Shown here one piece after another: positions 3,023 through 18,543 of a DNA stretch of 32,000 nt (its first letter is position 1; each line of letters starts with the position of its first letter). The position numbers were made by a program, and so were the translations under genes. The DNA comes from an archaeon (GTDB taxonomy: Archaea; Iainarchaeota; Iainarchaeia; Iainarchaeales; CSSED10-239). The stretch is from NCBI GenBank assembly GCA_041657425.1, contig JBBABY010000002.1, forward strand, positions 110,602 through 142,601. Direction: 5' to 3'. The notes beneath the pieces are model-generated. The model saw only the letters and a list, made by a program, of their open reading frames with translations. It searched no databases and was not told where the DNA came from.

Positions 3023-3616
3023 CTATTTCTTCTCTTCTTCGTCTTCATCATCGTCGCAATCTTCACAATCGCACTCATCGTCTTCGCATTCGTGGTCGTC
3101 TTCTCCGCATTCACCGTGACAGCTTGAACAACTTCCTCCACAACTGTGTGCTTCAAGTTCTTCGTCCATCTTTGCTGCTTCTGCCTCTGAAAGTACTTCA
3201 ATTAACTTAACTTTAAATGTAAGATTCTTTCCTGCAAGTGGGTGATTTAATATTGCATCAATTGTTGTTTCATCAATCTTAACGATTTCAATAGCTAATG
3301 GACCCATTCCTGACATTACAACAATTTCTTTGCCTTCTTGTAAGTCACTTATGCTGTTTAATAGTTCCTTTGGAATCTTTGCAACTTCTGTGTTCTTAGG
3401 ACCGTATCCTTCTTCAGGAGTTACCTTAATATCTTTTTCTTCTCCTGATTTCATTCCGATTACTCCGTCTTCAAACCCTGGAATAACCATACCAATACCA
3501 ACTTTAAACTTTAATGGATCTCTACCTTTACTAGAATCAAACATTGTTCCATCATCTAATAAACCATCATATTCAACTACTATCCAATCATTCTCTTTAA
3601 CACTCATACGTATCAT
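3023..3616 (-). CDS. slyD: FKBP-type peptidyl-prolyl cis-trans isomerase, SlyD-like, with acidic Cys/His-rich C-terminal tail
   Basis: FKBP core (VEYDGLLDDGTMFDSS...PLKFKVGIGMVIPGFEDGV...LAGKNLTFKVKL) with an insert-in-flap region. The 41-aa tail is HSCGGSCSSCHGECGEDDHECEDDECDCEDCDDDEDEEEKK. AGGAG lies 5 nt upstream of the ATG at 3616. Confidence 0.9.
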   Translation of the reverse strand: MIRMSVKENDWIVVEYDGLLDDGTMFDSSKGRDPLKFKVGIGMVIPGFEDGVIGMKSGEEKDIKVTPEEGYGPKNTEVAKIPKELLNSISDLQEGKEIVVMSGMGPLAIEIVKIDETTIDAILNHPLAGKNLTFKVKLIEVLSEAEAAKMDEELEAHSCGGSCSSCHGECGEDDHECEDDECDCEDCDDDEDEEEKK

Positions 3617-3728
3617 TCAACTCCTTTTGTTTTTAAAAATAGAACTAATATATTTATGGTACAAACCTATTATAAAAGGTTTTATTTAATATAGAAAAAG
3701 ACCAACAAAACTTTGCTGGAAACTCTAC

Positions 3729-3938
3729 TTATTTTTTCATTTTATACACTAAAAGATATACAACTGCTGTAATGATACTGAAAAGAATTGCACAAATAAT
3801 CCAAATTGCTTTTGCACCATCTGATAATCCTTTATTATTTGTAAGAACATCATAGATTACCCATATTGCACAAATAAGAGCAAGTATTCCAACTACTGAA
3901 CCGAGTGCTCCAAAACCTGAACTAAATATTCCTGCCAT
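3729..3938 (-). CDS. small two-TM membrane protein, PLDc_N (phospholipase-D-nuclease N-terminal) like
   Basis: 69 aa with two hydrophobic helices. The pattern IWVIYDVL...KAIWIICAILFSIITAVVYLLVY resembles the PLDc_N small-protein family. Confidence 0.6.
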   Translation of the reverse strand: MAGIFSSGFGALGSVVGILALICAIWVIYDVLTNNKGLSDGAKAIWIICAILFSIITAVVYLLVYKMKK

Positions 3939-4011
3939 TTATTTTTCCCCCTAGTTTGATTATAAAACTATATATACACTTACGGCTCAGGAAGTTATAA
4001 AGTAGCTTATT

Positions 4012-4056
4012 TTACTCTAATTGAGTTCTACCATAGAATCCTTTTGGGAAGTAGAT
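4012..4056 (-). pseudogene. displaced duplicate of the livM 3' end (encodes IYFPKGFYGRTQLE-stop)
   Basis: The reverse complement reads ATC TAC TTC CCA AAA GGA TTC TAT GGT AGA ACT CAA TTA GAG TAA. These are the same 14 residues plus stop as the real livM end at 5364..5408. The first 32 nt are identical and the last four codons and the stop differ only synonymously. Confidence 0.85.
4025..4056. repeat. 32-bp perfect direct repeat, left copy (GTTCTACCATAGAATCCTTTTGGGAAGTAGAT)
   Basis: Exact match to 5377..5408, compared by eye base by base. Confidence 0.9.
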
Positions 4057-5123
4057 CAGTATTTATTTAAAATTATTTCTAAATGTTTTAAAAATTCTTT
4101 AGTATCTAAAAAATAATTGGGATATGCTTTTTTAAGATCTTGCATATTGTCAGCACTAACTAATACAACGTCATATTCGTTTCTATTATATATTTTCTTT
4201 TCTGCAGAAGAATATGCTAGGAGTGCTTCTTTTTCTTCTCTTTTAGTGAATGCAGAAATATTTAGTCTTTCAAGAACTGTATCTAATTCTAAAAGATAAA
4301 ATTGTATGTTTTTCTTTTTTTTAAAATTATCAAAGTATTTTACAGATTCAGTCCAGTGCTTCATTTTCTGTTTTACTTGTAACTTTTTTTCTAGTTCTTT
4401 AATTTGTAAATAAAGTTCTTTTTCATTCTGAGGTGTTTGAGAAATTATCGGAGTATTTTCTAGTCTTGCAAATGCGGAACTTACTAATTTAAAAAAAGCT
4501 TTCCAGTTTTCCTCTCCTTGATTAGATTTTATGGCTTGTCTTGTAAAAAAATCAACAGTTTCTACTGCTGTTGCCCAAAGGTGTTGTAATTTAGATCTTA
4601 TTTGCACTTCTACTAATAGACCATTATATTCTTTTTTTCCTTTATCGCTACTATATCTATATACTAAATGTATACTTCTATATCCATCTAATTTAGGGCT
4701 TGAAATATAATCTTTTACATTTACTTTTTTATGCTTTATATCCCCGTTATAATAATAGGTTTCATATAATTCTCTCACTTGTTTAATGTCCGACATCACA
4801 ACTCTACAACCAGCAATATCTTGCATTTGAGTTAATTTCATTGTAGGACAATTATCATTATATTTTCTATTTAGTTTTTTAAATATCGAAGAAATTCTTT
4901 TTAATCTTTGAGCAGAGAGTGCATTTTTGTCTATTTTTTCAGAAACTCTTTTTAATCTATTTTTAAATACTTGTAAGGGATAGTTATGCATTGTCTTCCA
5001 GCTATTCACAATTTCTAATGCTTCATCTATTTCTGCTGCAGAATGCTCTTTATTATCAGATAGAATTATAGCTGAATTATTTATTTTTGATTTTGAGATT
5101 TCGTTAATATCTAGTTGCTCCAT
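4056..5123 (-). CDS. RelA/SpoT-domain nucleotide pyrophosphokinase (small alarmone synthetase-like / possible toxSAS-like)
   Basis: RelA_SpoT synthetase motifs are present: MQDIAGCRVVM, DGYRSIHLVYRY, LLVEVQIRSKLQHLWATAVE. There is a ~100-aa N-terminal region and a ~130-aa predicted helical C-terminal region with no Cys. Confidence 0.85.
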   Translation of the reverse strand: MEQLDINEISKSKINNSAIILSDNKEHSAAEIDEALEIVNSWKTMHNYPLQVFKNRLKRVSEKIDKNALSAQRLKRISSIFKKLNRKYNDNCPTMKLTQMQDIAGCRVVMSDIKQVRELYETYYYNGDIKHKKVNVKDYISSPKLDGYRSIHLVYRYSSDKGKKEYNGLLVEVQIRSKLQHLWATAVETVDFFTRQAIKSNQGEENWKAFFKLVSSAFARLENTPIISQTPQNEKELYLQIKELEKKLQVKQKMKHWTESVKYFDNFKKKKNIQFYLLELDTVLERLNISAFTKREEKEALLAYSSAEKKIYNRNEYDVVLVSADNMQDLKKAYPNYFLDTKEFLKHLEIILNKY

Positions 5124-5376
5124 AATAATATATTATTGCATAACCTTTTTAAATATATCAAATTGCGCGGTTATCGTGTAAAAAAAGTGTCAAATTGCAA
5201 GGAGAATTAAAAAAATCTAATTTTCCTACTAACCTTTATATTTAAAGCATTACCAAACACAAGTACAAAAATCATTTTTAATTATTAAAAAATTTATGTC
5301 AAATTGCGCGTGCACTCCAAAAAAAAAATGCTGAATTGCGCAGACCCTAATTATCAACATTTACTATTCCAACTGC
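4057..5376. mobile_element. putative integrated single-gene cassette (RelA/SpoT-domain gene plus its 240-bp repeat-containing upstream region), no recombinase gene
   Basis: It is bounded by the 32-bp direct repeat that duplicates the 3' end of livM. The livM-proximal copy has GC-richer synonymous codons (ACG CAG TTG GAA TAG). The distal copy has AT-rich ones (ACT CAA TTA GAG TAA). Confidence 0.6.
5159..5343. promoter_or_regulatory. four direct copies of a CAAATTGCGCG-like 12-mer upstream of the RelA/SpoT gene
   Basis: The copies are CAAATTGCGCGG (5159), CAAATTGCAAGG (5191), CAAATTGCGCGT (5300) and TGAATTGCGCAG (5332). They form two pairs with 32-nt start-to-start spacing. The first copy abuts a TATA-like GATATATTTAAAAA (minus strand) about 25-40 nt before the ATG. 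Confidence 0.5.
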
Positions 5377-6236
5377 GTTCTACCATAGAATCCTTTTGGG
5401 AAGTAGATTAAGATTATCAAAAGCAAAAGAGCAAAAAGAATCTGTCTTCCTGGACCAACAATTGATGAAGGAAGACCAACAAATCTTAAAATTTCTGGAA
5501 TAAGTGTAAGAATGATTGTAGCTACTACTGTTCCTTCAATGGAAGCAAGTCCTCCAACAATAATTATTGAGATAACTGGGATAAGTGCCATGAAAGTAAA
5601 AGAAGAAGGGTCAATGAAAGTTATGAAGTGAACAAACAACGAACCTGCGATACCAGCAAAGACTGCAGAGATGATAAGCCCAATTGTTTTAATCTTAAAT
5701 GTATTTTTTCCAAGAGCCTTAACACAGTATTCATCATCTCTTGTTGCTTCAAGTAGTTTACCAAACTTAGAGTTTACTATTCTTTGAATAATAAAGTAAC
5801 AAGCAACAGTAACTATTACTGTAAATATTAGATAAGAAAGATTACTACGAAAAACTAAACCAAAGATGTCTGGTTTTGGTATTCCTGAAATCCCAAATGG
5901 CCCTCTTGTTAAGTCTATCCAGTTGATAAGAAGAGCATAGACAAGAAACGAAAACGCCATTGTCCCTAAGGCAAGATAATCTCCTTTAAGTTTATTTGTT
6001 GGTACTGAAAGGATTAGTGCTGCAACTCCTGCTATTATTCCTGCTAAGAGAAACGCAAGAAGGAAAGGGACACCATTCATCACAAGTATTGCTGAAGTGT
6101 AAGCTCCGATTCCAAAGAAAGCAATGTGACCAAAGTTAAGTAGTCCTGTGTAACCAATAGAAACTTGTAAAGCTAAACAAAGTATTAACTGTATTGCAAT
6201 AATAATTAACAAATGTATAAAATAATCAATAATCAT
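5364..6236 (-). CDS. livM: branched-chain amino acid ABC transporter permease, LivM-type
   Basis: Polytopic membrane protein with the LivM signature GYTGLLNFGHIAFFGIGAYTSAIL. Its start overlaps the livH stop by 4 nt. Confidence 0.9.
   Translation of the reverse strand: MIIDYFIHLLIIIAIQLILCLALQVSIGYTGLLNFGHIAFFGIGAYTSAILVMNGVPFLLAFLLAGIIAGVAALILSVPTNKLKGDYLALGTMAFSFLVYALLINWIDLTRGPFGISGIPKPDIFGLVFRSNLSYLIFTVIVTVACYFIIQRIVNSKFGKLLEATRDDEYCVKALGKNTFKIKTIGLIISAVFAGIAGSLFVHFITFIDPSSFTFMALIPVISIIIVGGLASIEGTVVATIILTLIPEILRFVGLPSSIVGPGRQILFALLLLIILIYFPKGFYGRTQLE
5377..5408. repeat. 32-bp perfect direct repeat, right copy (inside the livM 3' end)
   Basis: Exact match to 4025..4056. Confidence 0.9.
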
Positions 6237-7108
6237 TTATTATTCCACCCTTTGTTTTTTCCTAAGATTCCATTAGGCATAAATAATAAAAATATAAATA
6301 ATAACATAAATGCAATTGCATCTTTGTAACTAGATGGCAAGAACCATATTCCATAATTTTCTGTAATCCCTAAGAGAAACGAACCAATGATTGCTCCAGG
6401 AACAGAAGTTATCCCGCCAATGACTGCTCCAGTAAATCCTTTAATCATTAAATTACTTCCCATTGTTGGTTCAACATTTAGTTCTAGAGCAACTAGTACT
6501 CCTGCAACTGCTGCTAATACTGAACCAATAATGAAACTATATGCAAATAATTTCTTTGAAGAAATTCCCATCATTTCAATTAACTCTGGAGAATCAGCAA
6601 CTGCTCTAAATTCTTTTCCTAGTTTTGTTTTTTTCATGAAAAGTAATAGTCCAACTAACAAGGCAATAGAAGTTCCAATAATTATTAACTGAACAGGAGT
6701 GATTATTGCTCCCAGGAAATTAATACCATGTCTTTGGAAAGATTGTATAATTTTAACATCTGCTCCAAAGAAGATTAAGATTAATGATTCAATTAAAATT
6801 AACAAAGCAATACTTGCAATCAAGAGGATTGTTGGCGATGCCTTTCTGCTTCTTAGTTTATCATAAACTAGATAATTGATTAAAAAACCAAATCCACCGG
6901 CCACTATAAGAGTAACAATTATTGCAAGCCACAATGGTAAACCTAAAAGATTAAAAAAAGTAAATAACATATAACTAGAAACAACAATTACTGCTCCATG
7001 AGCAAAATGAACAAATTTGTTTGTAGAATAGATTAAAGAAAAACCACAAGCAACAAGAGCATATATTGCTCCAGCAATGAGTCCATTGATTAATAATTGT
7101 AAAAACAT
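6233..7108 (-). CDS. livH: branched-chain amino acid ABC transporter permease, LivH-type
   Basis: N-terminus MFLQLLINGLIAGAIYALVACGFSLIYSTNKFVHFAHGA is typical of LivH. Polytopic. Confidence 0.9.
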   Translation of the reverse strand: MFLQLLINGLIAGAIYALVACGFSLIYSTNKFVHFAHGAVIVVSSYMLFTFFNLLGLPLWLAIIVTLIVAGGFGFLINYLVYDKLRSRKASPTILLIASIALLILIESLILIFFGADVKIIQSFQRHGINFLGAIITPVQLIIIGTSIALLVGLLLFMKKTKLGKEFRAVADSPELIEMMGISSKKLFAYSFIIGSVLAAVAGVLVALELNVEPTMGSNLMIKGFTGAVIGGITSVPGAIIGSFLLGITENYGIWFLPSSYKDAIAFMLLFIFLLFMPNGILGKNKGWNNK

Positions 7109-7222: not shown

Positions 7223-8368
7223 TTAGTTGTTTATGTATTTTATATTTCCATTTTCTATAGTTGCTTGAACTAATGGGAAACTAAACTCTCTTCCATTAAT
7301 ACTTGCGTCTCCATTGATTCCATTAAACTCTGTAATCTCTGAAAGCCCATCTTTTATTTCTGCTTTTGTATAGTTTGATTTTCCTATTGATTTTTTTATA
7401 AGATAAACTATATCATATCCTGTTGTAGCATAATGGTCTGCATCTTTATTGTATTTTGCTTTAAATTGTGTTTTAAAGTCTTCAGCTTTTGAGTCATCAT
7501 TTCTATATAATTCAGGAATTCCTGCATATGCTTTAACATTCATTTCATTTAATGCAGATCTAACATCCTTAAATGCTGCTGTTGATGGAATGAAAACTGC
7601 TACATTCATATCAAGTTCTTTACTTTGTTTTATTGAATTAATTATGTGACTACTAAAACCAACAAATAATATTGCATCTACATCTTGATATTTTAATTTA
7701 TTTAATTGAGTTCTAAAATCACTTGTAGATATTAAAAATGATTCGCCTACAACTTCTCCATTGTATTGTTCCTTTAATGTATTAAACATTGAAACTCCAA
7801 AATCATCATTTAAATATAAAACTCCTATTTTTTTTACACCTAAATCATTTGCGGCTTCTACAATTGGAGGAACTTCTTGTTTTGCTGTTGGAAAATATCT
7901 AAATGACCATTCATTTGTTGTTAAGTTTGGAACTGAAGCAATTGTTGCTATTACTGGTACTTGGTTTTGTTCTGCTAAAGGAACTACTGCCATTGCAACA
8001 GAACTCATTGCTGAAACAATAACTACTGGATCTTGAAGATTTGTCATATTATTGAAAGCTGCAACTCCTTCTTGAACATTTGATTTACTATCGCCTAGTA
8101 CTAAGACAACTTGTCTTCCGTTTATTCCACCTTTGGCATTAATTTCATCAACTGCCATAATCATGCCGTCTCTTATTTGTTCACCTGCAAAAGCTGTTGA
8201 ACCTGTAAGTGGTAAAACTGCACCCATCTTTATAATTTGTTCTTCTGGGGTCTTTAATACTAACAATCCTGTTATATTTGAATTAGATCCTATTATTGCA
8301 ACTAATAAAATTATAACTATTATTGCAATTGAAACTATTAACCAAATTTTATTTTTCATCGTTTTCAT
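7223..8368 (-). CDS. ABC substrate-binding protein 1, LivK-like (type I periplasmic-binding fold), N-terminal membrane anchor
   Basis: TM anchor IWLIVSIAIIVIILLVAIIG, then IKMGAVLPLTGSTAFAGEQIRDGMIMAVDEINAKGGINGRQV, typical of the Leu/Ile/Val-binding family. AAGGAG precedes the ATG. Confidence 0.85.
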   Translation of the reverse strand: MKTMKNKIWLIVSIAIIVIILLVAIIGSNSNITGLLVLKTPEEQIIKMGAVLPLTGSTAFAGEQIRDGMIMAVDEINAKGGINGRQVVLVLGDSKSNVQEGVAAFNNMTNLQDPVVIVSAMSSVAMAVVPLAEQNQVPVIATIASVPNLTTNEWSFRYFPTAKQEVPPIVEAANDLGVKKIGVLYLNDDFGVSMFNTLKEQYNGEVVGESFLISTSDFRTQLNKLKYQDVDAILFVGFSSHIINSIKQSKELDMNVAVFIPSTAAFKDVRSALNEMNVKAYAGIPELYRNDDSKAEDFKTQFKAKYNKDADHYATTGYDIVYLIKKSIGKSNYTKAEIKDGLSEITEFNGINGDASINGREFSFPLVQATIENGNIKYINN

Positions 8369-8435
8369 AAAAATCTCCTTTTTATTTTTTAACTGTGTAT
8401 AATTAACTTATGACTTTTCGGGTTATTATATTTGT

Positions 8436-8453
8436 GTAGTAAAAATTTACTAC
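8436..8453. promoter_or_regulatory. palindromic candidate operator GTAGTAA-N4-TTACTAC directly upstream of a TTTTTAAAG TATA-like box
   Basis: Perfect 7-bp inverted arms. It lies 32 nt before the TrmB start codon at 8485. The same arms recur at 10467..10485. Confidence 0.55.
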
Positions 8454-8484
8454 ATTTTTAAAGCTTTCTATATACTATATATTT

Positions 8485-9261
8485 ATGGAAAACATAGAAA
8501 CTAAGGGGATAACCACTTCAAACATAACTGCTAGTTACTTTGAAGATATTGGCTTTAAAAAAAAGTACGCTAATGTTTACTTAGCTCTTCTTAAGTTTGG
8601 GCATATGGGCATACCTGACATTGTTAAAAAAACTGGAGTTCAAAGAAGTTATCTTTACGACATTCTTGATGAATTGATTGAAAAAGGAATTGTTGGAAGT
8701 TATGTAAAAAATAACACTAAAATATTTTTTGCTGATGATCCAGAAAAAGTTCTAAAGATAATTAATAAGAAAGAAGAAAATATTAAGAATTTTAAAAAAG
8801 AATACACTGACATTCTTCCAACGTTAATTTCAATTAGTAGTAAAAATGAAAAAGATGAATTATTTTCATATGAAGGAAAAAAAGGAATTAAAAATATCTA
8901 TGATGACATTTTAAAAGAAGGGAAAGACTTTGTTTGTTTTGCAGGAACTGGATTTCCTGACGATTTTTACAAAGACTTTGTAAAAACATTTAATATTAGA
9001 TGTAAGAAAAAAGGAATTAAATACAAACTAATATTTTCGGACGCACTTAAATCTCGCGGTCCATTAGAAGTACACAAAGATGTTTGTGAAATTAAATATT
9101 TACCAAAAGAATATAATTATTCTTTTGCTATGCATGTTTATGGAGACAAAGTTTCAATCATTATTTGGCAATCACAAATGGGTATTGTAATAAAAAGTAA
9201 AAATGCTGCAAACGGATTTGCGGATTACTTTGAAATGATATGGAAGATTGCTAAAGAATAA
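8485..9261 (+). CDS. TrmB-family transcriptional regulator
   Basis: N-terminal winged HTH (FEDIGFKKKYANVYLALLKFGHMGIPDIVKKTGVQRSYLYDILDELIEKGIV) plus a C-terminal TrmB-type domain. Close paralog of 10507..11307 (both end YFEMIWKIAKE). Confidence 0.8.
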   Translation: MENIETKGITTSNITASYFEDIGFKKKYANVYLALLKFGHMGIPDIVKKTGVQRSYLYDILDELIEKGIVGSYVKNNTKIFFADDPEKVLKIINKKEENIKNFKKEYTDILPTLISISSKNEKDELFSYEGKKGIKNIYDDILKEGKDFVCFAGTGFPDDFYKDFVKTFNIRCKKKGIKYKLIFSDALKSRGPLEVHKDVCEIKYLPKEYNYSFAMHVYGDKVSIIIWQSQMGIVIKSKNAANGFADYFEMIWKIAKE

Positions 9262-9280
9262 AAAAGAAAAGATATCTTCT

Positions 9281-10396
9281 CTAAGATATCTTTAATGATA
9301 CTGCTTCTCCATTTTCAATAATGAAGTAATCTACTTGTGGATTTATTGCTCTTCCAATTGAAGAGTTATAATTTATTACTGTACCTGTTGCTTGATCATT
9401 TAACATTGCATCAGTAATACATACTTTATCTGCCTTTCCACATTTCTTTACTGCAGAATATAATTTAAATATTCCATCATAATCTGTTGGAGCATTTCCA
9501 GTTATTCCTGTTGTGTTACCATATTCTACATTGTAATCGCTTGTAAATGTGTCAGAATATTTTAATACACTAATAACTGTTCCATTTAAATTTTCTGTAC
9601 CAATTGTAGTTTTAATTTTGTCTGTAAATGTGTTTGATGCATCTCCAAATAACACTAAGTTATTTAACTCAAGATCTAACTTTGCAGTATATACTCCAAT
9701 TGTTGTACCTTCATAAGCACATGAAAATAATCCATAATATCCTTCATTGCTTAACTTAAGTAATACTGTTTTTAGGTCTTGTACCCCTACTAAACTTTCA
9801 ACTTTTATATTTTCTTGTGTGTAATAATTTAATGCACCTTTTTGACAATCAATTGGCATAGCCCCACCAACACCATCAAGTATTGCAATCTTTTCAATTC
9901 CTTGTGATTTTGCAATTTTTGCAAATGTTGTACATTCTGCTTCTGCATTTCTATATGTTTTTACTGAGTAATCATATTTTGTTAATGGATCTGTTGTGTA
10001 CGCACTATACAATACAAACATATTGTTATCTTTAGCAATTGGAACAACTGCACCTGATGGGCCAGTAAATTCTACAAATATTACATCAACATTATCTATT
10101 TGTACTAACTTGTTTGCTGCAACTGCAGCTTCTTTTGCATCTGATTTTGAATCTTCAACTATTACTTGTATTGAATCATCACCATACATTTCTTTTATTT
10201 TCTTTTCTGCTAACAATACTGCTCTTGAATCTGGCACTCCAAGATAACTTGTTGTTCCAGTTATTCCTGTAATAAAACCTATCTTTACTGTTTGTGGTTC
10301 TGATTTTTTAGTTGCTTGAATTGCAACAACAACTATTAAGGCAATAACTGCAATTGCTACAATAATTAAAATCCAATTTTTATTTTCTGTTTTCAT
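9281..10396 (-). CDS. ABC substrate-binding protein 2 (divergent LivK-like), membrane-anchored
   Basis: TM anchor WILIIVAIAVIALIVVVAIQ, then VKIGFITGITGTTSYLG. Start trimmed to the ATG at 10396, which has GGAGG 9 nt upstream. The ORF track begins at 10417. Confidence 0.75.
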   Translation of the reverse strand: MKTENKNWILIIVAIAVIALIVVVAIQATKKSEPQTVKIGFITGITGTTSYLGVPDSRAVLLAEKKIKEMYGDDSIQVIVEDSKSDAKEAAVAANKLVQIDNVDVIFVEFTGPSGAVVPIAKDNNMFVLYSAYTTDPLTKYDYSVKTYRNAEAECTTFAKIAKSQGIEKIAILDGVGGAMPIDCQKGALNYYTQENIKVESLVGVQDLKTVLLKLSNEGYYGLFSCAYEGTTIGVYTAKLDLELNNLVLFGDASNTFTDKIKTTIGTENLNGTVISVLKYSDTFTSDYNVEYGNTTGITGNAPTDYDGIFKLYSAVKKCGKADKVCITDAMLNDQATGTVINYNSSIGRAINPQVDYFIIENGEAVSLKIS

Positions 10397-10466
10397 AGTT
10401 TCTTTCCTCCAAATCATTTTATCAAGTTATTAAATAACTTATAATCGTTCTTGCTTATAAGTGAGT

Positions 10467-10485
10467 GTAGTAAATAACTTACTAC
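10467..10485. promoter_or_regulatory. palindromic candidate operator GTAGTAA-N5-TTACTAC followed by TTTTTAAAG
   Basis: Same 7-bp arms and same downstream TATA-like box as 8436..8453. It lies upstream of the paralogous TrmB gene. Confidence 0.55.
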
Positions 10486-10506
10486 TTTTTAAAGATTTCT
10501 GTATTT

Positions 10507-11307
10507 ATGCTATTTATGAAGGAAAAAACCTCAGAAGTAATGGCGATGCCTGACCTTAATCCAGCAGACTTATTTAGTTACTTTGAAGAAATAGGGTTTA
10601 AGAGAAACCATGCAAACACTTATCTTGCTTTGTTGAAATTTGGACAACTTGGAATGCGCGACATTGTTAAAAAAACAGGAATACAAAGAAGTTATGTTTA
10701 TGATATCTTAGATGAACTAACAGAAAAAGGACTTGTTGGATTTTTTACAAAAAACAAAAATAGAGTTTACTTTGCTGATGATCCAGAAAAGATTTTAGAA
10801 TTAATAAATAATAAAGAAGAAAAAATAAAAAACTTCAAACAAAAATACACAGCATTACTTCCTAGTTTAATTTCAGTAACCAATGTTGAAGGAAAAGATG
10901 GACTGTATGCTTATGAAGGAAGAAACGGTTTAAAGAATATATTTGAAGACATGATTAAAGAAGGAAAAGATTTTGTTTGTTTTGGAGGAGAAGGAGAATT
11001 CTCTAAATACTATCCAGAATATGCAAACACTTTTACTTTAAGATGTAAACAAAAAGGAATGGCACAAAAAATTGTTTATTCAAGTTCACTTAGAGGAAAG
11101 AGACCACTTCCAATACAGAAAATAATTAAATGTGAAATTAAGTTTTTACCTAAAGAATATTATTATCCATTTGCAATTTATGTTTATGGAGATAAAACCG
11201 CAATCATTATGTGGCAATCAATGCAAGGAATATTGATCAAAGGAGAAAGCACAGCAAAGGGATTTGAAGACTATTTTGAAATGATATGGAAAATTGCTAA
11301 AGAATAA
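10507..11307 (+). CDS. TrmB-family transcriptional regulator (paralog)
   Basis: wHTH FEEIGFKRNHANTYLALLKFGQLGMRDIVKKTGIQRSYVYDILDELTEKGLV. Collinear with 8485..9261 along its full length. Confidence 0.8.
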   Translation: MLFMKEKTSEVMAMPDLNPADLFSYFEEIGFKRNHANTYLALLKFGQLGMRDIVKKTGIQRSYVYDILDELTEKGLVGFFTKNKNRVYFADDPEKILELINNKEEKIKNFKQKYTALLPSLISVTNVEGKDGLYAYEGRNGLKNIFEDMIKEGKDFVCFGGEGEFSKYYPEYANTFTLRCKQKGMAQKIVYSSSLRGKRPLPIQKIIKCEIKFLPKEYYYPFAIYVYGDKTAIIMWQSMQGILIKGESTAKGFEDYFEMIWKIAKE

Positions 11308-11327
11308 ATAAAAAAAGAAAAAAGAAA

Positions 11328-12476
11328 TCAGTTGTAAATTACAACTGTTCCGTTTCTTATTGTGTTGAAGATGTAACTTGATTGTACGTCTCCGTATGAA
11401 TCGAAAGTTACTGTTCCTGATGTCATGTGCTTGTCTTTGATTGAGTAAAGATATGCTTTTGCACATTCTGTGTCTTCTTTACAATGATCTATTGCTTCAG
11501 CTATAACATATACTGAATCATAAGTGTATGCTGAGTAAGACAATGGTAATTGATTTGGGAAGTCTTGTCCGTATAATGATTTTAACTTGTTACTGTATTC
11601 TAAAGTAACTGGGTCTTTGTCATTAATGTTGTATTGAGGATAGATTGCTCCTTCAACTAACTCTGGATACTCGCTTACAATTTCAGGTAAAGCAATCATT
11701 TCGTTTGTAAATATCTTTGGTTTATAGTTGTTTGCTTGAAATTCATTTAAGATTAATCTTAATGTTGCCTTTCCTGTTGAGTTTGGTATTAAGTAAACTG
11801 CCTGTGGGTTACTTGCAATTACTTTTGTAACAATTGTTCTAAAATCATTTTCTGTTGACATATATCCTTCTTCTAAAACTATTTTGTTATTTGAGTCTTT
11901 TAGATATTCAGCTTTGAAAGTATCTGCAAGTGCTTTAGAGTATGCTTCGTTTTCATAAATGATTGCTACTTTTGTTATTTTTTGATTAACCATTTCTTCT
12001 GAAACCTTTTGTGCAAGATATGAGTCTGATGGTATTAATCTAAAAACGTAATCTCCTGCATTTGTTATTTCTTGACTTGATCCTGATGGTGATAACATTA
12101 TTACTTTTGAACTTTCTATTATTGGTGCTGCACCAAGAACTTCTGAACTACAGAATCCTCCAATTATATAATCTACTTTATCAATATTTACTAATTTACT
12201 TGCAGCATTAGCTGCTTCTTTAGAATCACATTTTCCATCTTCGTAAATGAATTCTATTTTATTTTGATCTTTGTTGATTTCACTCTTTGCTAACTCTAGT
12301 GATTTAGACAATTCATCTCCAAGACCAGCAGCGTCTCCTGATAGTGGCATAATTATTCCAATCTTTGTTACTGTTTGTTTTGAAGCAGGCGTGAATAAAC
12401 CACTAACTGTTGCTATTAAAACAAAACCAACTAATAACACTACTAAACTAACTAATAAAATATTTTTCTTTTGCAT
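11328..12476 (-). CDS. ABC substrate-binding protein 3, LivK-like, membrane-anchored
   Basis: TM anchor, then TKIGIIMPLSGDAAGLGDE...EDGKCDSKEAANAASKLVNIDKVDYIIGGFCSSE. Start trimmed to the ATG at 12476 with GGAGG 8 nt upstream. The ORF-track start at 12491 is a TTG. Confidence 0.8.
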   Translation of the reverse strand: MQKKNILLVSLVVLLVGFVLIATVSGLFTPASKQTVTKIGIIMPLSGDAAGLGDELSKSLELAKSEINKDQNKIEFIYEDGKCDSKEAANAASKLVNIDKVDYIIGGFCSSEVLGAAPIIESSKVIMLSPSGSSQEITNAGDYVFRLIPSDSYLAQKVSEEMVNQKITKVAIIYENEAYSKALADTFKAEYLKDSNNKIVLEEGYMSTENDFRTIVTKVIASNPQAVYLIPNSTGKATLRLILNEFQANNYKPKIFTNEMIALPEIVSEYPELVEGAIYPQYNINDKDPVTLEYSNKLKSLYGQDFPNQLPLSYSAYTYDSVYVIAEAIDHCKEDTECAKAYLYSIKDKHMTSGTVTFDSYGDVQSSYIFNTIRNGTVVIYN

Positions 12477-12572
12477 AATTTTTTCCTCCAATATGTTTTT
12501 TCTCTAATGCGTAAATGATATAATTAGAGCAGACCAAGTACTTAAGAAATACCAGAGAAAAACTAAACAAAC

Positions 12573-12598
12573 CAGTAGTATTTATAAATATATTACTG
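12573..12598. promoter_or_regulatory. near-palindrome CAGTAGTA-TTTATAAATA-TATTACTG spanning a TATA-like core
   Basis: 8-nt arms are 7/8 complementary. It shares the GTAGTA/TTACT half-site with the two TrmB operators. It lies 13 nt before the Lrp/AsnC gene start. Confidence 0.35.
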
Positions 12599-12610
12599 CT
12601 TTATTTAATT

Positions 12611-13591
12611 ATGGATGAAATAACCCAAATTGATAGAAAAATCATATATGAACTATCAATTAATTCTAGGTTAAGTTATAAGGAACTAGCAAAGAAAATT
12701 GACTCAAAGAAAGACACTGTTGCTTACCATGTTAATCAATTGATTGATAACAAAGTAATAACTAAGTTCTTGCCCGTGTTTTCTTTATCTAAACTTAATA
12801 TTCTAACATATAAGATTTATTTCAAACTACAAGGACTAACTCCTGACAAAGAAAAAGAACTTTATGATTATCTAGTAAATAGTCAAAAAATTGATTGGGT
12901 GGTTAAAGTCCTAGGGCAATGGGATTTGTTTATTGGACTATATTCTAAAACACCTCTTGAGTTTTCAAAAACAAAAGATGAATTACTTTCTAAATTTAAT
13001 GATATTATAACAAGCTATCAAGTTGTTCAAATGGCAGACCAAACAATTGCATTTGGAAGAGATTACTTGATTGATAAGCCAGATGTCATCTATAGAAAAG
13101 AATTTGTTTTTATTTCTCAGAATGAAAAGACTCAATTAGATTTAACTGATCTAAAAATAATTAATGAAATTAAAAATGATGGAAGATTCAAGTATCTTGA
13201 TGTTTCTAAAAAGATTGGGATTAATGAAAAGACAATTAGAGAAAGAATAAAGAAGATGAAAGAAAATAATTTCTTGCAAGGTTACACTATCTTTATTGAT
13301 CCTAAGAAGATTAATGGATTTACCTACAAGCTTTGTATCTACTTAAGTGACCATGATCAAAAAAGATTTAATGAACTAATTGATTACACAAAGCTTAACC
13401 CTAATGTTGTTCGCCTGATTAAATCAATTGGGCCATGGGAATTAGAGATTGAACTAGAAGCAAGTGATATTTTAAAGATATACGAATACACAAATCAACT
13501 AAAGAATAAATTCTCAACAACAATAAAGCAAATAGATATTTCAATTATGACAGATGAATTGAAATTGAATTACTTTCCTGGAAACTATTAA
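12611..13591 (+). CDS. tandem (double) Lrp/AsnC-family transcriptional regulator
   Basis: There are two HTH_AsnC-like modules: IDRKIIYELSINSRLSYKELAKKIDSKKDTVAYHVNQLIDNKVI and DLKIINEIKNDGRFKYLDVSKKIGINEKTIRERIKKMKENNFL. Each is followed by a RAM-like segment. Confidence 0.75.
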   Translation: MDEITQIDRKIIYELSINSRLSYKELAKKIDSKKDTVAYHVNQLIDNKVITKFLPVFSLSKLNILTYKIYFKLQGLTPDKEKELYDYLVNSQKIDWVVKVLGQWDLFIGLYSKTPLEFSKTKDELLSKFNDIITSYQVVQMADQTIAFGRDYLIDKPDVIYRKEFVFISQNEKTQLDLTDLKIINEIKNDGRFKYLDVSKKIGINEKTIRERIKKMKENNFLQGYTIFIDPKKINGFTYKLCIYLSDHDQKRFNELIDYTKLNPNVVRLIKSIGPWELEIELEASDILKIYEYTNQLKNKFSTTIKQIDISIMTDELKLNYFPGNY

Positions 13592-13610
13592 AAAAAGAAA
13601 AAGAAAAAAA

Positions 13611-14747
13611 CTACTTTAGTAAAGTAGCTTTCCCATCTCTTACTATGTTTAACTGGAAGTACATGTCTGGATCTCCATTCTTGTCAAAGCTTATTGTTCC
13701 TGAAGTTCCATCGTAATCCTTTACTGAGTATAAATAATCTTTTATACATTCTGTATCTTCTTGATCACATTTCTCTAGTGCTTGTGCTGTAATGTATACT
13801 GAATCATATACTCCTGCAACCATTTGTAAAGAATAGGTTGGATCTGTATTGTATGTTGTTCTGTAGTTGCTTAAGAATGCTACAAAGTCTTCTTTATCTT
13901 GATCAAACTTTATTTCTGAATAGATTACTCCTTCAAGTAAAGTTGGAACTGCATCTAAAACATCTTTGTTTACTAATGCTCTTGTTGAAAATAAGGCTGT
14001 ACCGTTTGCTAGAGTATCTAATTGTTTTAGAAATTCAATTGAGTTTACTCCTTTTAATGGCAAGAAAAGAACTGCATCAGTATTAGCTGATTTAATCTTT
14101 GTAATTTCTGTTCTGAAATCTATTTGATCTGTTGCATATTGTTCAGAGAAAGCAATTGTTCCTCCAAGTTCTTTAAACTTATTTTCAAAGTCTTTTTGTA
14201 CAGAAGCTGAAAAAGCATCTGGTGCTGTTAATATTGATACTTTTCTATAACCTTCTTCATACATATAGTTTGCTAACATCTCTGTACCTTTTGTATCATT
14301 AGGAGAAATTCTAAAAACATAATCTCCTGCTGAAGAGATTGCTGGACTTGCTGACATTACTCCAAATACTACAGTACTACTTTCGTTTGCAATCTTTGCA
14401 CTACTTAATGTTACTGTACTACATACTGTATAGATTAATGGAACGTGATCTATGTTAATTAACTTGTTTGTAGCATCACTTGCTAACTTTCCATCACATT
14501 GACCATCTTCTACAATTAATTCTAATTTATGACCTTTTACTCCACCTTTACTGTTTATTTCATTTACTGCTAATTGAGCTGCATTTAATGCTGGAATACC
14601 AAAAGAAGTTGTTCCTCCACTTAACCCTGAAATCATTCCTAACTTTATAGTGTCTTTAGGTTTACTTGCATTTACTAAATAAAATCCAAATAGTAAAATC
14701 CCCACCATCACTAACGCAATTACTAACATTTTTGTATTTTTTTTCAT
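13611..14747 (-). CDS. ABC substrate-binding protein 4, LivK-like, membrane-anchored
   Basis: TM anchor, then IKLGMISGLSGGTTSFGIPALNAAQLAVNEINSKGGVKGHKLELIVEDGQCD. Start trimmed to the ATG at 14747, preceded by AGGAGG. The ORF-track start at 14774 is a GTG. Confidence 0.8.
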   Translation of the reverse strand: MKKNTKMLVIALVMVGILLFGFYLVNASKPKDTIKLGMISGLSGGTTSFGIPALNAAQLAVNEINSKGGVKGHKLELIVEDGQCDGKLASDATNKLINIDHVPLIYTVCSTVTLSSAKIANESSTVVFGVMSASPAISSAGDYVFRISPNDTKGTEMLANYMYEEGYRKVSILTAPDAFSASVQKDFENKFKELGGTIAFSEQYATDQIDFRTEITKIKSANTDAVLFLPLKGVNSIEFLKQLDTLANGTALFSTRALVNKDVLDAVPTLLEGVIYSEIKFDQDKEDFVAFLSNYRTTYNTDPTYSLQMVAGVYDSVYITAQALEKCDQEDTECIKDYLYSVKDYDGTSGTISFDKNGDPDMYFQLNIVRDGKATLLK

Positions 14748-14817
14748 ATGATTTCCTCCTTTTAATTTGTTCACTTTATTAAATAACTTATCTTCAAAGG
14801 AGTATATCTAAATAAGG

Positions 14818-14832
14818 ACCCCCTAAGGGGGT
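14818..14832. promoter_or_regulatory. GC-rich perfect palindrome ACCCCCT-A-AGGGGGT in a divergent promoter region
   Basis: 7-bp arms with a 1-nt centre. It is an isolated GC island in AT-rich intergenic DNA between binding-protein gene 4 and a TrmB gene. Confidence 0.4.
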
Positions 14833-14875
14833 ATTAACAGAAAACTATATAAAAGTAATATTGCCTAATATTATT

Positions 14876-15613
14876 ATGGAAGAACTAGAGATTATTGGGT
14901 TTACTAAGAATGAAAGCAGAGTTTACTTAGAACTTCTTAAGCTTGGCAAATCAACTAAAACTCCAATTGCTTACAAATCAGGAGTATCTACTTCTAAAGT
15001 TTATGATATTTTAGAAAGATTAAGAAGCAAAGGACTTGTGTCAATTTCTACAATTAATAAGGTAAAATACTTTAAAGCAGCACCACCTAATCAACTAAAT
15101 CATTATCTTGAAAAAAAAGAAAGCGAATTAGCAAATCAGAAGAAAATGATTAGTAATATAATGCCAACACTAAACGAATACACAAACAAAAACGAAGAAA
15201 AATTTGTTACAAAATATTATACTGGCACAAATGGACTAAAAACAGCAATAAACGAAATATTAGATTTAGCAAAAGAAAACACAATCTATTATGGAATGGG
15301 AATAACTGAAAAGAAAAATGAGATGCTAAATATCAACTGGGTACATTGGCACAGAAAGAGGGCAAAAAAGAACATTACTTCTAAATTAATATTTGGAGAA
15401 ATAGATAATCAAAAATATTATAACAATCTCAAAAACATTAGTAAAACAGAAGTAAAAATAATGAATGCTCAAACTCCTTCTGCATTAGCAATACTAGACG
15501 GAAGAGTTTTAATTGTAAACTATACAGAAGTTCCTGTTGCAATAATTATTGAAGATAAAAATATTAGTGAAACATTTATAACTTTCTTTAATAATATTTG
15601 GAATATTATCTAA
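14876..15613 (+). CDS. TrmB-family transcriptional regulator
   Basis: MEELEIIGFTKNESRVYLELLKLGKSTKTPIAYKSGVSTSKVYDILERLRSKGLV is a typical TrmB N-terminus. Start trimmed from the TTG at 14861 to the first ATG. Confidence 0.8.
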   Translation: MEELEIIGFTKNESRVYLELLKLGKSTKTPIAYKSGVSTSKVYDILERLRSKGLVSISTINKVKYFKAAPPNQLNHYLEKKESELANQKKMISNIMPTLNEYTNKNEEKFVTKYYTGTNGLKTAINEILDLAKENTIYYGMGITEKKNEMLNINWVHWHRKRAKKNITSKLIFGEIDNQKYYNNLKNISKTEVKIMNAQTPSALAILDGRVLIVNYTEVPVAIIIEDKNISETFITFFNNIWNII

Positions 15614-15647
15614 TTTATCTTTTAAGATTTATTGAATTATGAAAAGT

Positions 15648-16358
15648 TTATCTGCCACCAAAGTAAATATTTTTTATTTTCGTATCGTTTAAGATTTCTT
15701 TTGTTCCTTCTAGGGCAACTTTTCCATCCTCGAAAATGTAAATCTTGTCTGAGATCTCTGCTGCTTGCTTTGCGTTCTGCTCTACTATAAGGATTGTTGT
15801 CTTATCCTTCTTGTTTATTTCTTTAACTATTCCAAAAATTTCTTTCATGGTCTTTGGATCAAGGCCAATTGATGGTTCATCAAGAAGAAGAACTTCTGGT
15901 TTAACAAGAAGAGCTCTAGCAATGGCAAGGATCTGTTGCTGGCCGCCTGAAAGAGTATATGCTGAATCATTTTCTTTCTCTTTTAACATTGGAAACCTCA
16001 TTAACATTTCTTGAATGAGTTGCTTCTTTTCTTTCTCTTTTAACTTGCTTGAGAAAAGACCAATCTCTAAGTTCTCATAGACTGTTAGATCATTAAATAT
16101 TCTTTTACCTTGTGGACAGTAATTGATTCCAAGATTGATTAATTTGTGAGTTTTTGTTTTCGTAATTTTATTTCCATTGTAGATAATGTCGCCGGAGTAT
16201 ATGTCACACTGATTGAAGATCGACTTAAGAAGAGTAGATTTTCCTGCACCATTTGGACCAATGATTGAAACTACTTTTCCTATTTCTATTCTCATAGATA
16301 TGTCCTTTAGTACTTGGCTATTATCATATCCTGCATTTAGTTTCTTTATTTCAATCAT
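15648..16358 (-). CDS. livF: branched-chain amino acid ABC transporter ATP-binding protein, LivF-type
   Basis: Walker A GPNGAGKST, signature LSGGQQQ, Walker B LLLDEPS. The size and N-terminus are LivF-like. Confidence 0.9.
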   Translation of the reverse strand: MIEIKKLNAGYDNSQVLKDISMRIEIGKVVSIIGPNGAGKSTLLKSIFNQCDIYSGDIIYNGNKITKTKTHKLINLGINYCPQGKRIFNDLTVYENLEIGLFSSKLKEKEKKQLIQEMLMRFPMLKEKENDSAYTLSGGQQQILAIARALLVKPEVLLLDEPSIGLDPKTMKEIFGIVKEINKKDKTTILIVEQNAKQAAEISDKIYIFEDGKVALEGTKEILNDTKIKNIYFGGR

Positions 16359-16361
16359 ACT

Positions 16362-17099
16362 TTATTCTCCAAGATAAGCTTCAAGTACTTTTTTATTGTT
16401 CTTTATTTGTTCTGGCGAACCTTTTGCTATAACTTTGCCATCATCCATAACTATTATTTCATCACAGATATTAAGAGTAAAGAACATGTCGTGCTCTATT
16501 AAAAGAATTGTTTCTCCACTACCCTTTAATAATTTTAAAACTTCCATAATTGTGTTTCTAATGCTTGGGTGAACTCCAGCTACTGGTTCATCAAGAATCA
16601 TAAGCTTATGCGGTTTAAGAATTGCTCTACACAACTCAACTAATCTTTTCTGACCATAGCTTAGTTCTTTACATTGTAAGTCTTTCACTTCATAGATCTT
16701 TAATAACTCTAGAACTTCTTTGATTCTTTTTTCTTGCTTTGTGTTTAATTTATTACTTGAAAAAAAAGACTTAAGAAACTTTGTATTCTCTTCCTCAATT
16801 GCTATTTCTAGATTTTCATAAACTGTTAAATTATTGAATAATCTAGATTTTTGAAAAACTCTTGAAATTCCTGAATTTGCAATACCTTCTGGAGTAAATT
16901 TAGAAATGTCTTTACCATTAAAGATAATTGTTCCAGAATCTTCTTTTTCAAAACCAGAAATTATATTAAAAACAGTTGACTTTCCTGCGCCATTTGGGCC
17001 AATAAGTCCTGTTATTTTATTTGGTTTAATTGTAAAATTACAATTGTCTGCAGCTTTAATTGCTCCGTAACTTTTATTTAAGTTTTTTATTTGTAACAT
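16362..17099 (-). CDS. livG: branched-chain amino acid ABC transporter ATP-binding protein, LivG-type
   Basis: Walker A GPNGAGKST, signature LSYGQKR, Walker B LMILDEPVAG. It lies 3 nt upstream of livF. Confidence 0.9.
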   Translation of the reverse strand: MLQIKNLNKSYGAIKAADNCNFTIKPNKITGLIGPNGAGKSTVFNIISGFEKEDSGTIIFNGKDISKFTPEGIANSGISRVFQKSRLFNNLTVYENLEIAIEEENTKFLKSFFSSNKLNTKQEKRIKEVLELLKIYEVKDLQCKELSYGQKRLVELCRAILKPHKLMILDEPVAGVHPSIRNTIMEVLKLLKGSGETILLIEHDMFFTLNICDEIIVMDDGKVIAKGSPEQIKNNKKVLEAYLGE

Positions 17100-17107
17100 A
17101 ATATTTT

Positions 17108-17764
17108 CTACTTTGCAACTGATCTTCTAATATTTTTTTCTTTACTATAAAGTTTATTTGCTTGATATCCAGTTCTATAATTAACTCTATTATCAAGGCC
17201 TCTCATTTCTTTATCTTGGTGGCCAACAAATGTAGATAATTTGTCAATTACTTCTGAATTTACTTTATATCCCCTTCTGTCAAGATTTAAAGAAACATAA
17301 TCTAACCATTCATTGCGACATTTTTGTGCATAATCTCCAAAAGCTACCACTTTTAGATTTTTACTTAGTTTTTTATAAATCTGTGGGCTAAACTCTTGTT
17401 CTGGAATATACCCCATAGGAATAAATCTTTTCTTAAGAGCAATATTGCAAAATTCAATAAATCTTCCAGCAATTTTATCAAACACAAGACGAGCCGCGCT
17501 ATTTTTGGGTACAGGGCAATATAATACAACTAAAGTATTTGGTTTTTTTGATAACTCTAAAATCTTTTCTCCATATGCTTGTAATGTTTGTTTAAGTTTA
17601 AATTTATTTTTCTTATCTTTAAGAATTAAATTTGTATACTTTAGAATTTCTTCAGAACTCATTTGAGTTTTTGAAGCAACCACTACTTCTTTTGGTATAT
17701 TTGATAATAATAAATTATATAATGGATGAACCACCATCACAATTTCATTATATTTTTCAGTCAT
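17108..17764 (-). CDS. hypothetical protein, apparently co-transcribed with livGF
   Basis: 218-aa ORF. It ends 8 nt before livG and starts 8 nt after the methyltransferase gene. I recognise no motif. Confidence 0.55.
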   Translation of the reverse strand: MTEKYNEIVMVVHPLYNLLLSNIPKEVVVASKTQMSSEEILKYTNLILKDKKNKFKLKQTLQAYGEKILELSKKPNTLVVLYCPVPKNSAARLVFDKIAGRFIEFCNIALKKRFIPMGYIPEQEFSPQIYKKLSKNLKVVAFGDYAQKCRNEWLDYVSLNLDRRGYKVNSEVIDKLSTFVGHQDKEMRGLDNRVNYRTGYQANKLYSKEKNIRRSVAK

Positions 17765-17772
17765 AATTTACT

Positions 17773-18534
17773 TTATTTAATTTTTCTCGCAACAATATGT
17801 ATTGATGGACTTTTTAATTTATTAAACTTTTTATTTGGTTCTCCATATATTTCTATGGGTTCAAATCCTGTTTGCTGTAGTAATTGCTTTAATCGGTCTA
17901 TTGTATATACCTTCATATCCCATTCGTGAGGAATCATCTTATATTGGCTTATTCCTTCTTGAATGTATATCTTTTCTTTAAAGTTAATAATCTCTTTTTT
18001 GAAATTAAATTTGTCTTCATTAAATCTTACAAAGAATTTGTTATCATATTCTTTTGCTGCATCAATGAATGAATTAACTGGATTTTGTTTCATGAAATCT
18101 GTATTAAAAATATCAAAAATATATAATTTTCCAATTTTCAGTTGAGAATTAATATTCTTTAATGTTTTAATAAAATCTTCTTCAGAAAGGTGACCAATTG
18201 CATTATACATTGAAATTACACAATCTGCTTTTGGAAACTTATAATTTCTCATATCTCCTTGTTTGAAATTAAGATTTACTTTTTGCTTCTTTGCTATTTT
18301 TCTGGCTATATCAAGCATGTCCTTTGAGAAATCACTTGCATAAACTTTATAACCTTTCTTTGAGAAATAGATAGCTTGAGCTCCTGTTCCGCAAGTTATA
18401 TCAGCGACACTCTTTACTTTATATTTCTTAAATATTTTCTCTAAGAATACATTTGTTGCCTTTTTGTGTTCATTATCGGTTTCTACAAGTTCATAGAATT
18501 CTGCTAGATCTTTATAGTTGTATTGTTTTACCAT
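17773..18534 (-). CDS. class I SAM-dependent methyltransferase (Methyltransf_11/25-like)
   Basis: Motif I VADITCGTGAQAIYFSKKGYKVYASDFS. Post-I and motif II pattern DCVISMYNAIGHL. Confidence 0.8.
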   Translation of the reverse strand: MVKQYNYKDLAEFYELVETDNEHKKATNVFLEKIFKKYKVKSVADITCGTGAQAIYFSKKGYKVYASDFSKDMLDIARKIAKKQKVNLNFKQGDMRNYKFPKADCVISMYNAIGHLSEEDFIKTLKNINSQLKIGKLYIFDIFNTDFMKQNPVNSFIDAAKEYDNKFFVRFNEDKFNFKKEIINFKEKIYIQEGISQYKMIPHEWDMKVYTIDRLKQLLQQTGFEPIEIYGEPNKKFNKLKSPSIHIVARKIK

Positions 18535-18543
18535 TGTTATTCA

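Follow-up and report, generated by a model that had tools for sequence, protein, structure and literature searches.

A CapRel-type toxin-antitoxin cassette bracketed by copies of the livM 3′ end in an archaeal genome, best read as an insertion with long target duplication

The arrangement reported here lies in a 32-kb stretch of archaeal DNA (the window; contig JBBABY010000002.1) and consists of a single RelA/SpoT-domain gene of the CapRel type which sits, with its control region, between two copies of the 3′ end of livM, a branched-chain amino-acid permease gene. Several described systems resemble it. Integrative and cis-mobilizable elements of the ICESt1/CIME family at fda target the 3′ ends of protein genes; they have a conserved attachment (att) core and a known integrase, and derive from larger elements. 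The livM locus is like them in that its direct repeats come from a gene 3′ end, an element-borne copy restores the gene and no recombinase lies inside the element, but differs in that the repeats vary by locus among relatives of the cassette and in that one examined case duplicates recipient sequence. Closer still is the insertion of restriction-modification genes with target duplications of 45–423 bp (Furuta, Abe and Kobayashi 2010, following Nobusato et al. 2000; PMC2853133). In those cases the duplications are unique in the genome, often lie over stop or start codons and come without mobility genes; flanking repeats are significantly enriched for the restriction-modification class, no archaeal case passed the screen, and the mechanism was left open (PMC2853133).

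The window shares with these insertions a selfish or defence unit lacking a mobility gene, a unique repeat made from the target, its position across a stop or start codon, and enrichment across the class. Where the criteria of that paper ask for a repeat of >30 bp around an insert of <20 kb, with no mobility gene and no dispersal of the repeat, the window has a 32-nt perfect repeat (45 nt with the diverged block) around a 1320-nt insert, no mobility gene within 32 kb and two copies of the repeat there. What differs is the cargo, a CapRel-type fused toxin-antitoxin where the known cases carry restriction-modification genes, and the range of hosts, which are DPANN archaea and bacteria of the candidate phyla radiation (CPR). 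The repeat combines a perfect block of recipient type with a diverged one that sets donor against recipient sequence; this bipartite layout points to one homologous junction, and we did not find it described in the passages of PMC2853133 consulted. An empty site with one repeat copy in a related genome, also among the criteria, was not found in strict form for the window. In our best reading, the window is a long-target-duplication insertion with a new cargo class and new hosts. Backward switches of the replication template (break-induced replication mediated by microhomology, MMBIR) likewise give duplications (PMC2621351). Both MMBIR and homology-facilitated illegitimate recombination offer a further parallel: foreign DNA is anchored by homology on one side and joined without homology on the other. 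The events reported for homology-facilitated illegitimate recombination in transformable bacteria mostly delete recipient DNA. We know of no description of a recurrent backward join of 20–56 nt, or of a join tight at the stop codon of the cargo, and a literature search found no earlier account of PDC-S33 (the candidate defence family of the gene) or CapRel with direct repeats or hotspots.

The gene order, all on the minus strand, is livH, livM, a 240-nt spacer, the RelA/SpoT-domain gene, the second repeat copy and a PLDc_N gene. The window's own locus is called WIN where it is listed with others, and L-numbers denote the other contigs compared. The parts are:

6233-7108, minus strand: livH, the gene upstream of livM
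5364-6236, minus strand: livM, the target gene, a branched-chain amino-acid ABC permease of 290 amino acids (Pfam BPD_transp_2, E = 2.5e-43)
5377-5408, minus strand: upstream perfect 32-nt block (P), encoding I-Y-F-P-K-G-F-Y-G-R-T(partial) of livM
5364-5376, minus strand: upstream diverged block (Q-up), the working livM end, (AC)G CAG TTG GAA TAG, in rare codons
5342-5363, minus strand: 22-nt spacer from the livM stop to the first operator motif, common to L105 only
5124-5341, minus strand: cassette promoter/operator region with four GCGCAA-like direct motif copies
4056-5123, minus strand: predicted CapRel-type fused toxin-antitoxin gene, 355 amino acids (Pfam RelA_SpoT, PADLOC PDC-S33, PDB 7ZTB/9ERV)
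4025-4056, minus strand: downstream perfect 32-nt block (P), whose first base is also the last of the CapRel stop codon
4012-4024, minus strand: downstream diverged block (Q-down), the displaced tail, (AC)T CAA TTA GAG TAA, with its reading frame intact
3729-3938, minus strand: gene for a small PLDc_N membrane protein (domain search), the native downstream neighbour, outside the cassette

The 32-mer GTTCTACCATAGAATCCTTTTGGGAAGTAGAT occurs in two exact copies, 4025-4056 and 5377-5408, which bracket a segment of 1320 nt (4057-5376); the window holds no further match even at 3 mismatches, and none appeared in 100 shuffles. With neighbouring bases included, the two copies align over 51 nt with 86% identity (4013-4063 and 5365-5415). 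The last 45 nt of livM form the upstream copy, and the TGA stop of the CapRel-type gene overlaps the downstream copy by 1 nt. On the minus strand livM ends in ...ATC TAC TTC CCA AAA GGA TTC TAT GGT AGA ACG CAG TTG GAA TAG, while in the displaced copy (AC)T CAA TTA GAG TAA comes after the identical 32 nt. The two tails thus both read T-Q-L-E-stop and have five differences, all synonymous if the change from stop to stop is counted; as only 9 of the 45 possible single changes in the tail codons are synonymous, the chance of five out of five is ~3e-4. Among window genes the codons of the fused tail make up small shares of their families (ACG 3%, CAG 14%, TTG 8%) compared with those of the displaced tail (ACT 33%, CAA 86%, TTA 52%), and in usage the fused tail matches neither the host genes nor the cassette gene. 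What the original prediction had described of this repeat was confirmed: its length and spacing, its origin in the coding end of livM and the recoding of the final residues. Against a worry raised there, that the duplication might be an assembly artefact, stands a second assembly (L001; ENA ERZ27247350 k141_619088), which shows the same structure and is 99.97% identical over 15,123 nt, its 4 mismatches (at 5632 and 7687-7689) all lying outside the cassette.

The gene between the repeats belongs to a well-populated family. Its product matches Pfam PF04607 RelA_SpoT over residues 72-185, the synthetase nucleotidyltransferase domain (E = 1.9e-20), and the catalytic motifs DIAGCR and EVQIRSxxQHxWA are invariant in 36 homologues. 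PADLOC assigns residues 7-352 to PDC-S33, a single-gene candidate defence family (E = 2.9e-116), and a profile of the 36 homologues aligns with Salmonella CapRel (PDB 7ZTB_A/9ERV_A) over residues 7-351 (E = 2e-59). An AlphaFold model of the 355-residue protein (predicted local distance difference test, pLDDT, 82) has 7ztb as its top Foldseek match (E = 1.7e-22, template-modelling score 0.67-0.69, 361 columns). The C-terminal regulatory (antitoxin/sensor) domain is fused in the same polypeptide, as seen in the profile, in the Foldseek alignment and in the PADLOC span. Judged from these comparisons and the model, the protein is a full-length CapRel-type fused toxin-antitoxin (toxSAS), and a tRNA pyrophosphokinase activity and an anti-phage function would be expected of it. 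It resembles CapRel SJ46 of a Salmonella prophage (PDB 7ZTB, 9ERV) in full-length homology, fold and single-gene organization; however, the two are only 31-32% identical, and where CapRel SJ46 is prophage-borne the window gene is a chromosomal cassette of an archaeal/CPR clade with its own conserved four-site operator. The family counts 5290 proteins at E <= 1e-10 and 516 genome loci, and its members keep 50-90% identity across DPANN archaea, CPR bacteria and some other metagenome-assembled genomes, which fits frequent horizontal transfer.

The control region is as characteristic as the gene. Four direct motifs resembling GCGCAAtt(t)ga, read on the minus strand at 5331-5341, 5299-5309, 5190-5200 and 5158-5168, form two modules, each 32 nt wide, and the last motif abuts a TATA-like box ~25 nt before the ATG; the exact operator 11-mer is found in the window only in this region. 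Upstream of nearly every homologue, 2-4 direct GCGCAA-type motifs are present at about -205, -173, -77 and -45; at least two copies were counted at 65 of 70 homologue loci compared with 11 of 368 control windows, in archaeal and CPR hosts alike. Homology between cassettes in differing contexts starts at the first operator motif and stops at the stop codon, so that the conserved unit is, by these shared limits, ~1.29 kb long. The motif array looks like a portable autoregulatory operator. A subgroup (L051, L058, L060 and L081) carries CCGCCCAAAAC in place of the GCGCAA-type motif. The ~100 nt between the modules (5201-5298 in the window) are unrelated to the corresponding sequence of L105 and L089, whereas the modules themselves are ~90% identical, and in L011, L055 and L076 one module is a long perfect duplicate of the other; on this comparison the inter-module region behaves like an exchangeable slot. 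At 5274-5302 and 5132-5161 (minus strand), TTGACA/TTGATA hexamers lie in the motifs with -10-like boxes 17-18 nt downstream, and archaeal TATA-like boxes are also present; the cassette promoter may be usable in both domains of life.

Direct repeats around members of the family were sought by comparing, at each locus, 1 kb upstream of the cassette with 0.6 kb downstream, for 80 fetched homologue loci and the window. Flanking direct repeats of >=40 bits were present at 9 of 74 evaluable loci, and L024 adds a 37-nt perfect pair, for 10 of 75 loci in all; when mock cassettes shifted by 3-4.5 kb were treated in the same manner, one of 196 had a repeat (Fisher p = 1.4e-5 against the homologue loci). 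The repeats of these ten loci are all different sequences of 19-151 nt with no shared core, and are drawn from the end or start of a neighbouring gene or from intergenic DNA beside the cassette: the last 140 nt of V-ATPase subunit D in L008, the stop region of a gene in L027 and L076, the first 20 codons of the downstream gene in L004, and a hairpin just after a tRNA in L024. The left edge usually begins with A or AA. A polarity is also seen: in WIN, L004, L008, L027 and L076 the left edge is taken up by a perfect block of 27-44 nt, and mismatches occur only to the right of it; the chance of the longest mismatch-free stretch coming first in all five is ~3e-4 by hand calculation. The idea that all coding repeats differ only synonymously was rejected, as L008 has three synonymous and five non-synonymous differences, the latter because its displaced copy has decayed.

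Some further observations were made at these loci. The only strong match among the 196 controls was at L078, where, ~3 kb downstream of the CapRel gene, a 29-nt perfect direct repeat surrounds ~1.3 kb that may be another cassette of the same kind. In L024 (positions 1-135) and upstream in L032 the cassette lies directly downstream of a tRNA-like sequence, read by eye, and the 37-nt repeat of L024 is a hairpin starting 2 nt after it. The cassette has a shared element, ATGGTGCGCG(A/G)G..., on its upstream side in L019 (5698-5712) and L017 and on its downstream side in L012 (7076-7090); L012 and L019 have 5 kb of upstream synteny in common, and the surroundings of the cassette are rearranged.

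A three-way comparison is offered by L008, in which the cassette sits downstream of the V-ATPase subunit D gene (atpD), and the related contig L125, whose atpD is 99% identical in protein. L125 diverges from L008 before the cassette and is cassette-free. The two L008 copies are alike at repeat positions 20, 41, 47 and 51, where L125 has other bases; from position 57 on, 9 of 10 variable sites in the upstream copy read as in L125, and the downstream copy differs. Divergence between the two contigs is ~4% over the atpD body and the perfect block, and under 1-2% over 5486-5690; the sequence after the downstream L008 copy is unrelated to that following atpD in L125. The simplest reading of this pattern assigns the atpD body and the two perfect blocks to the recipient, derives the cassette, ~160 nt of flank and the upstream diverged block from an L125-like donor, and takes the downstream diverged block to be the recipient's old tail. 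Either a single-crossover circle or an attP x attB exchange would have made one perfect block donor-type, which is not seen in L008 and argues against both.

As for livM itself, the nearest gene outside this population is 76% identical, with none found between 76% and 100%; the window protein has no exact match on record, and its tail GRTQLE is unique among 120 homologues, implying that both tails come from one narrow lineage. In L085-87, whose livM is ~75% identical, upstream synteny is kept (TrmB, binding protein, livH, livM) and a small gene and SRP54 come straight after livM; a RelA/SpoT gene is absent there. A second cassette at a livM tail was found in L105, a 3.1-kb JGI contig from another project whose CapRel-type protein is 90% identical to that of the window. 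A livM-tail fragment of at least 67 nt lies directly upstream of this cassette and a 31-nt fragment directly downstream, with a 19-nt perfect block followed by a diverged block (TKPE-stop compared with TQSW-stop); the boundary between perfect and diverged sequence coincides with that of the window to within 1 nt. Although 37% of fourfold sites differ between WIN and L105, the perfect blocks are identical in each. The neighbours downstream of the displaced tails differ between the two; that of L105 has an N-terminus which, by eye, resembles the small gene after livM in L085-87. In L105 livM itself is gone, and orthologous cassettes in L002, L089, L106 and L123 occupy the same locus (FtsY ... 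small gene-SRP54) without livM remnants. These comparisons indicate that the association of the cassette with the livM end is not confined to a single host background, and that the cassette can also be passed on vertically; the undecayed displaced tail of the window points to a comparatively recent insertion there. Between FtsY and the cassette of L105 (1214-1672), manual translation shows a reverse-strand 3′ remnant of a periplasmic binding-protein gene together with the 67-nt livM 3′ remnant, which by sequence are a decayed liv cluster; in L123 the gene left upstream of the cassette is instead one for an ABC ATPase.

A search for mobility machinery gave no recombinase, integrase or transposase domain in the large open reading frames of the window, no inverted repeats pairing the cassette ends in a search for terminal inverted repeats, no tRNA in the window and no Rfam match in 3600-5600. 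A transposon or miniature inverted-repeat transposable element was rejected on the lack of terminal inverted repeats and the variable length (19-151 nt) of the flanking repeats; an integron cassette was rejected as the repeat starts at the stop codon with no structured 3′ element, and also on the absence of an integrase from the window and the presence of the cassette's own promoter. The 18-nt core AGGATTCTATGGTAGAAC, shared by WIN and L105, gave only the contig of L105 and chance matches in public metagenome contigs, and only chance matches, in no relevant context, in viral contigs. Short contigs of ~1.3-1.7 kb with close homologues (L088 and L089 among them) were considered as circles and rejected, since host flanks are present. 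The search for a vehicle found none: viral contigs hold only homologues of 30-43% identity, and plasmids homologues of at most 41%.

The reading that we favour, at about even confidence, is that segment 4057-5376 is a horizontally acquired, self-contained defence cassette which entered the livM 3′ end by host recombination rather than through any enzyme that it encodes, as an insertion with long target duplication. In the order of events that we infer, the donor DNA would have come from a related archaeon with the cassette already just after livM. On the upstream side, homologous recombination within the livM tail would have placed the crossover at the boundary of the 32-nt perfect and 13-nt diverged blocks, so that the working livM end ACG CAG TTG GAA TAG would be donor sequence after the crossover, as probably is the 22-nt spacer at 5342-5363. 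On the downstream side, which would lack homology, the cassette end at the CapRel stop would have been joined back to recipient DNA at a point 32-45 nt upstream of the crossover; such backward rejoining duplicates recipient sequence and would have displaced the native tail ACT CAA TTA GAG TAA beside the PLDc_N gene. This downstream join may have been a template switch or a one-ended recombination; alternatively, it could have been made through a short displaced livM block already carried by the donor. By analogy with L008, the livM body and both 32-nt blocks of the window would be recipient-type, and the fused tail, 22-nt spacer and cassette donor-type. The model predicts an empty site of the form TTGATAATCTTA + 32-mer + TCAATTAGAGTAA...

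Several points weigh against this account. The assignment of donor and recipient parts in the window draws on codon usage and on the analogy with L008, and the physical route to a backward join is a proposal. A strict empty site was not found for the window lineage, the nearest livM being 76% identical and having another downstream neighbour, and L125 supports the model only partly as a cassette-free relative of L008. The cassette end ...TACTGAT that precedes the displaced tail is common to WIN and L105, as is the 18-nt core, so the join may have been inherited from a donor already carrying the repeat; a purely de novo illegitimate join is set back by this. In 8 of 10 cases the repeat starts at most 60 nt from the stop codon, a tightness that random one-ended recombination does not predict. 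The displaced tail of L008 shows decay (P to S, R to M twice, loss of the stop) while its donor-type segment is almost identical to L125, which makes a two-step history possible for that locus.

Part of what the original prediction had proposed about the insertion agrees with these results. A single-gene cassette at the livM 3′ end is supported by L085-87, which have no such gene after livM, and by L105, which has the same upstream junction; that the livM-proximal tail came in with the element is most likely, given its rare codons and the donor-type upstream diverged block of L008; and the cassette encodes no recombinase, nor does the rest of the 32 kb. The empty site that it called for has a partial counterpart in L085-87, where livM stands without the cassette but at ~75% identity and beside another downstream neighbour. 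Its central proposal, site-specific integration through an attachment site and a trans-acting recombinase, fares poorly: att-site integration by a dedicated recombinase is probably not the mechanism, as the ten loci share no core and the perfect blocks of L008 are recipient-type. In its fullest form this proposal is an integrative mini-element, a circle with a 45-nt mimic of the livM end inserted by a recombinase encoded elsewhere, like cis-mobilizable elements, with a predicted circle junction of CapRel-stop / 32-mer / GCAGTTGGAATAG / cassette upstream region (as sequence, ...AATAAATACTG + 32-mer + GCAGTTGGAATAGTAAATG...). WIN and L105 do have the same upstream-side junction with boundaries coinciding within 1 nt, both L105 copies retain the 18-nt core despite the loss of livM from that locus, elements aimed at gene ends typically rebuild them, and the tight cassette ends and the shared ...TACTGAT would also fit an element-borne attachment site. 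On the other hand, only WIN and L105, with the same target, share a core among the homologues, ~160 nt of donor host flank lies between repeat and cassette in L008, and neither the integrase search of the 32 kb nor the searches of viral and metagenome contigs with the core gave it support, leaving the mini-element unlikely, although a recombinase may be encoded elsewhere in the genome. Integration of a circularised fragment (the cassette with a relative's livM end) by a single Campbell-type crossover in the 32-nt stretch would account for a repeat of host sequence, a diverged tail linked to the cassette and locus-specific repeats, and archaeal recombination works on very short homologies; but every difference between donor and recipient should then remain as a mismatch between the copies, whereas five of five diverged codons fall in 13 nt and none in 32 nt, the downstream perfect block of L008 is recipient-type where donor-type is predicted, and the perfect block always lies at the left edge. 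This we regard as rather improbable.

An old insertion in the ancestor of WIN and L105, no longer mobile and vertically inherited, with gene conversion keeping the 32-nt block identical, draws on the orthologous cassettes of L002, L089, L105, L106 and L123, whose one locus and shared flanks indicate long vertical inheritance, and on the perfect blocks that are still identical in both WIN and L105 at 37% fourfold divergence. Old tails decay, however, as seen in the TQSW of L105 and in L008, whereas that of the window is altered only synonymously (the ~3e-4 chance given above), and the neighbours downstream of the displaced tails of WIN and L105 differ; such a history seems quite improbable to us. 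That the contigs are metagenome assemblies speaks for a mis-join in a strain mixture, but two assemblies agree, L105 is from another project and analogous repeats were recovered from several assemblers. The target-site duplication of a non-autonomous transposon, taken together with this artefact, is confronted with the lack of terminal inverted repeats and with repeats far longer and more variable than transposase duplications, and partly diverged; the pair is most improbable. A more far-reaching view is that CapRel-type cassettes of DPANN and CPR hosts are discrete mobile units, from the first operator motif to the stop codon, moved by a homology-guided insertion mechanism new to science, for which a trans-acting recombinase pairing a short flank with the target, or a replication- or complementary DNA (cDNA)-based copy-in, would be candidates. 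The tight boundary at the stop codon, the A/AA left edge, the shared TACTGAT end and the odd rare-codon tail could point to such a defined unit; the proposal is speculative, and we think it unlikely to hold.

Two other features of the window deserve mention. The liv locus at 7223-20573 has five periplasmic binding-protein genes around one permease/ATPase set; four of the five are each paired with a divergent regulator gene of the TrmB family (or HTH_AsnC type), and the fifth (7223-8368) heads the livH-livM run, an unusual expansion of sensor and regulator paralogues. The C-terminal tail of an FKBP-type peptidyl-prolyl isomerase at 3023-3616 abounds in Cys, His, Asp and Glu (SCGGSCSSCHGECGEDDHECEDDECDCEDCDDDEDEEE) and resembles a metal-binding tail of the SlyD type.

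Taken as an insertion with long target duplication, the livM cassette shows the scar known from restriction-modification genes around a different class of selfish gene, in tiny-genome archaea and CPR bacteria, and the two-part repeat gives a concrete model for it, one homologous junction and one backward join. Such an insertion can land in a gene end without inactivating the gene, and the conserved four-site operator suggests a portable, self-regulating promoter for archaeal and bacterial hosts. A homology-guided mechanism, if real, would give long and variable target duplications and rebuild the end of the invaded gene, and could explain the 25-year-old puzzle of how restriction-modification genes insert with long target duplications. 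The wider interest lies in the spread of defence and addiction genes between genomes, which goes far beyond what the known vehicles explain.

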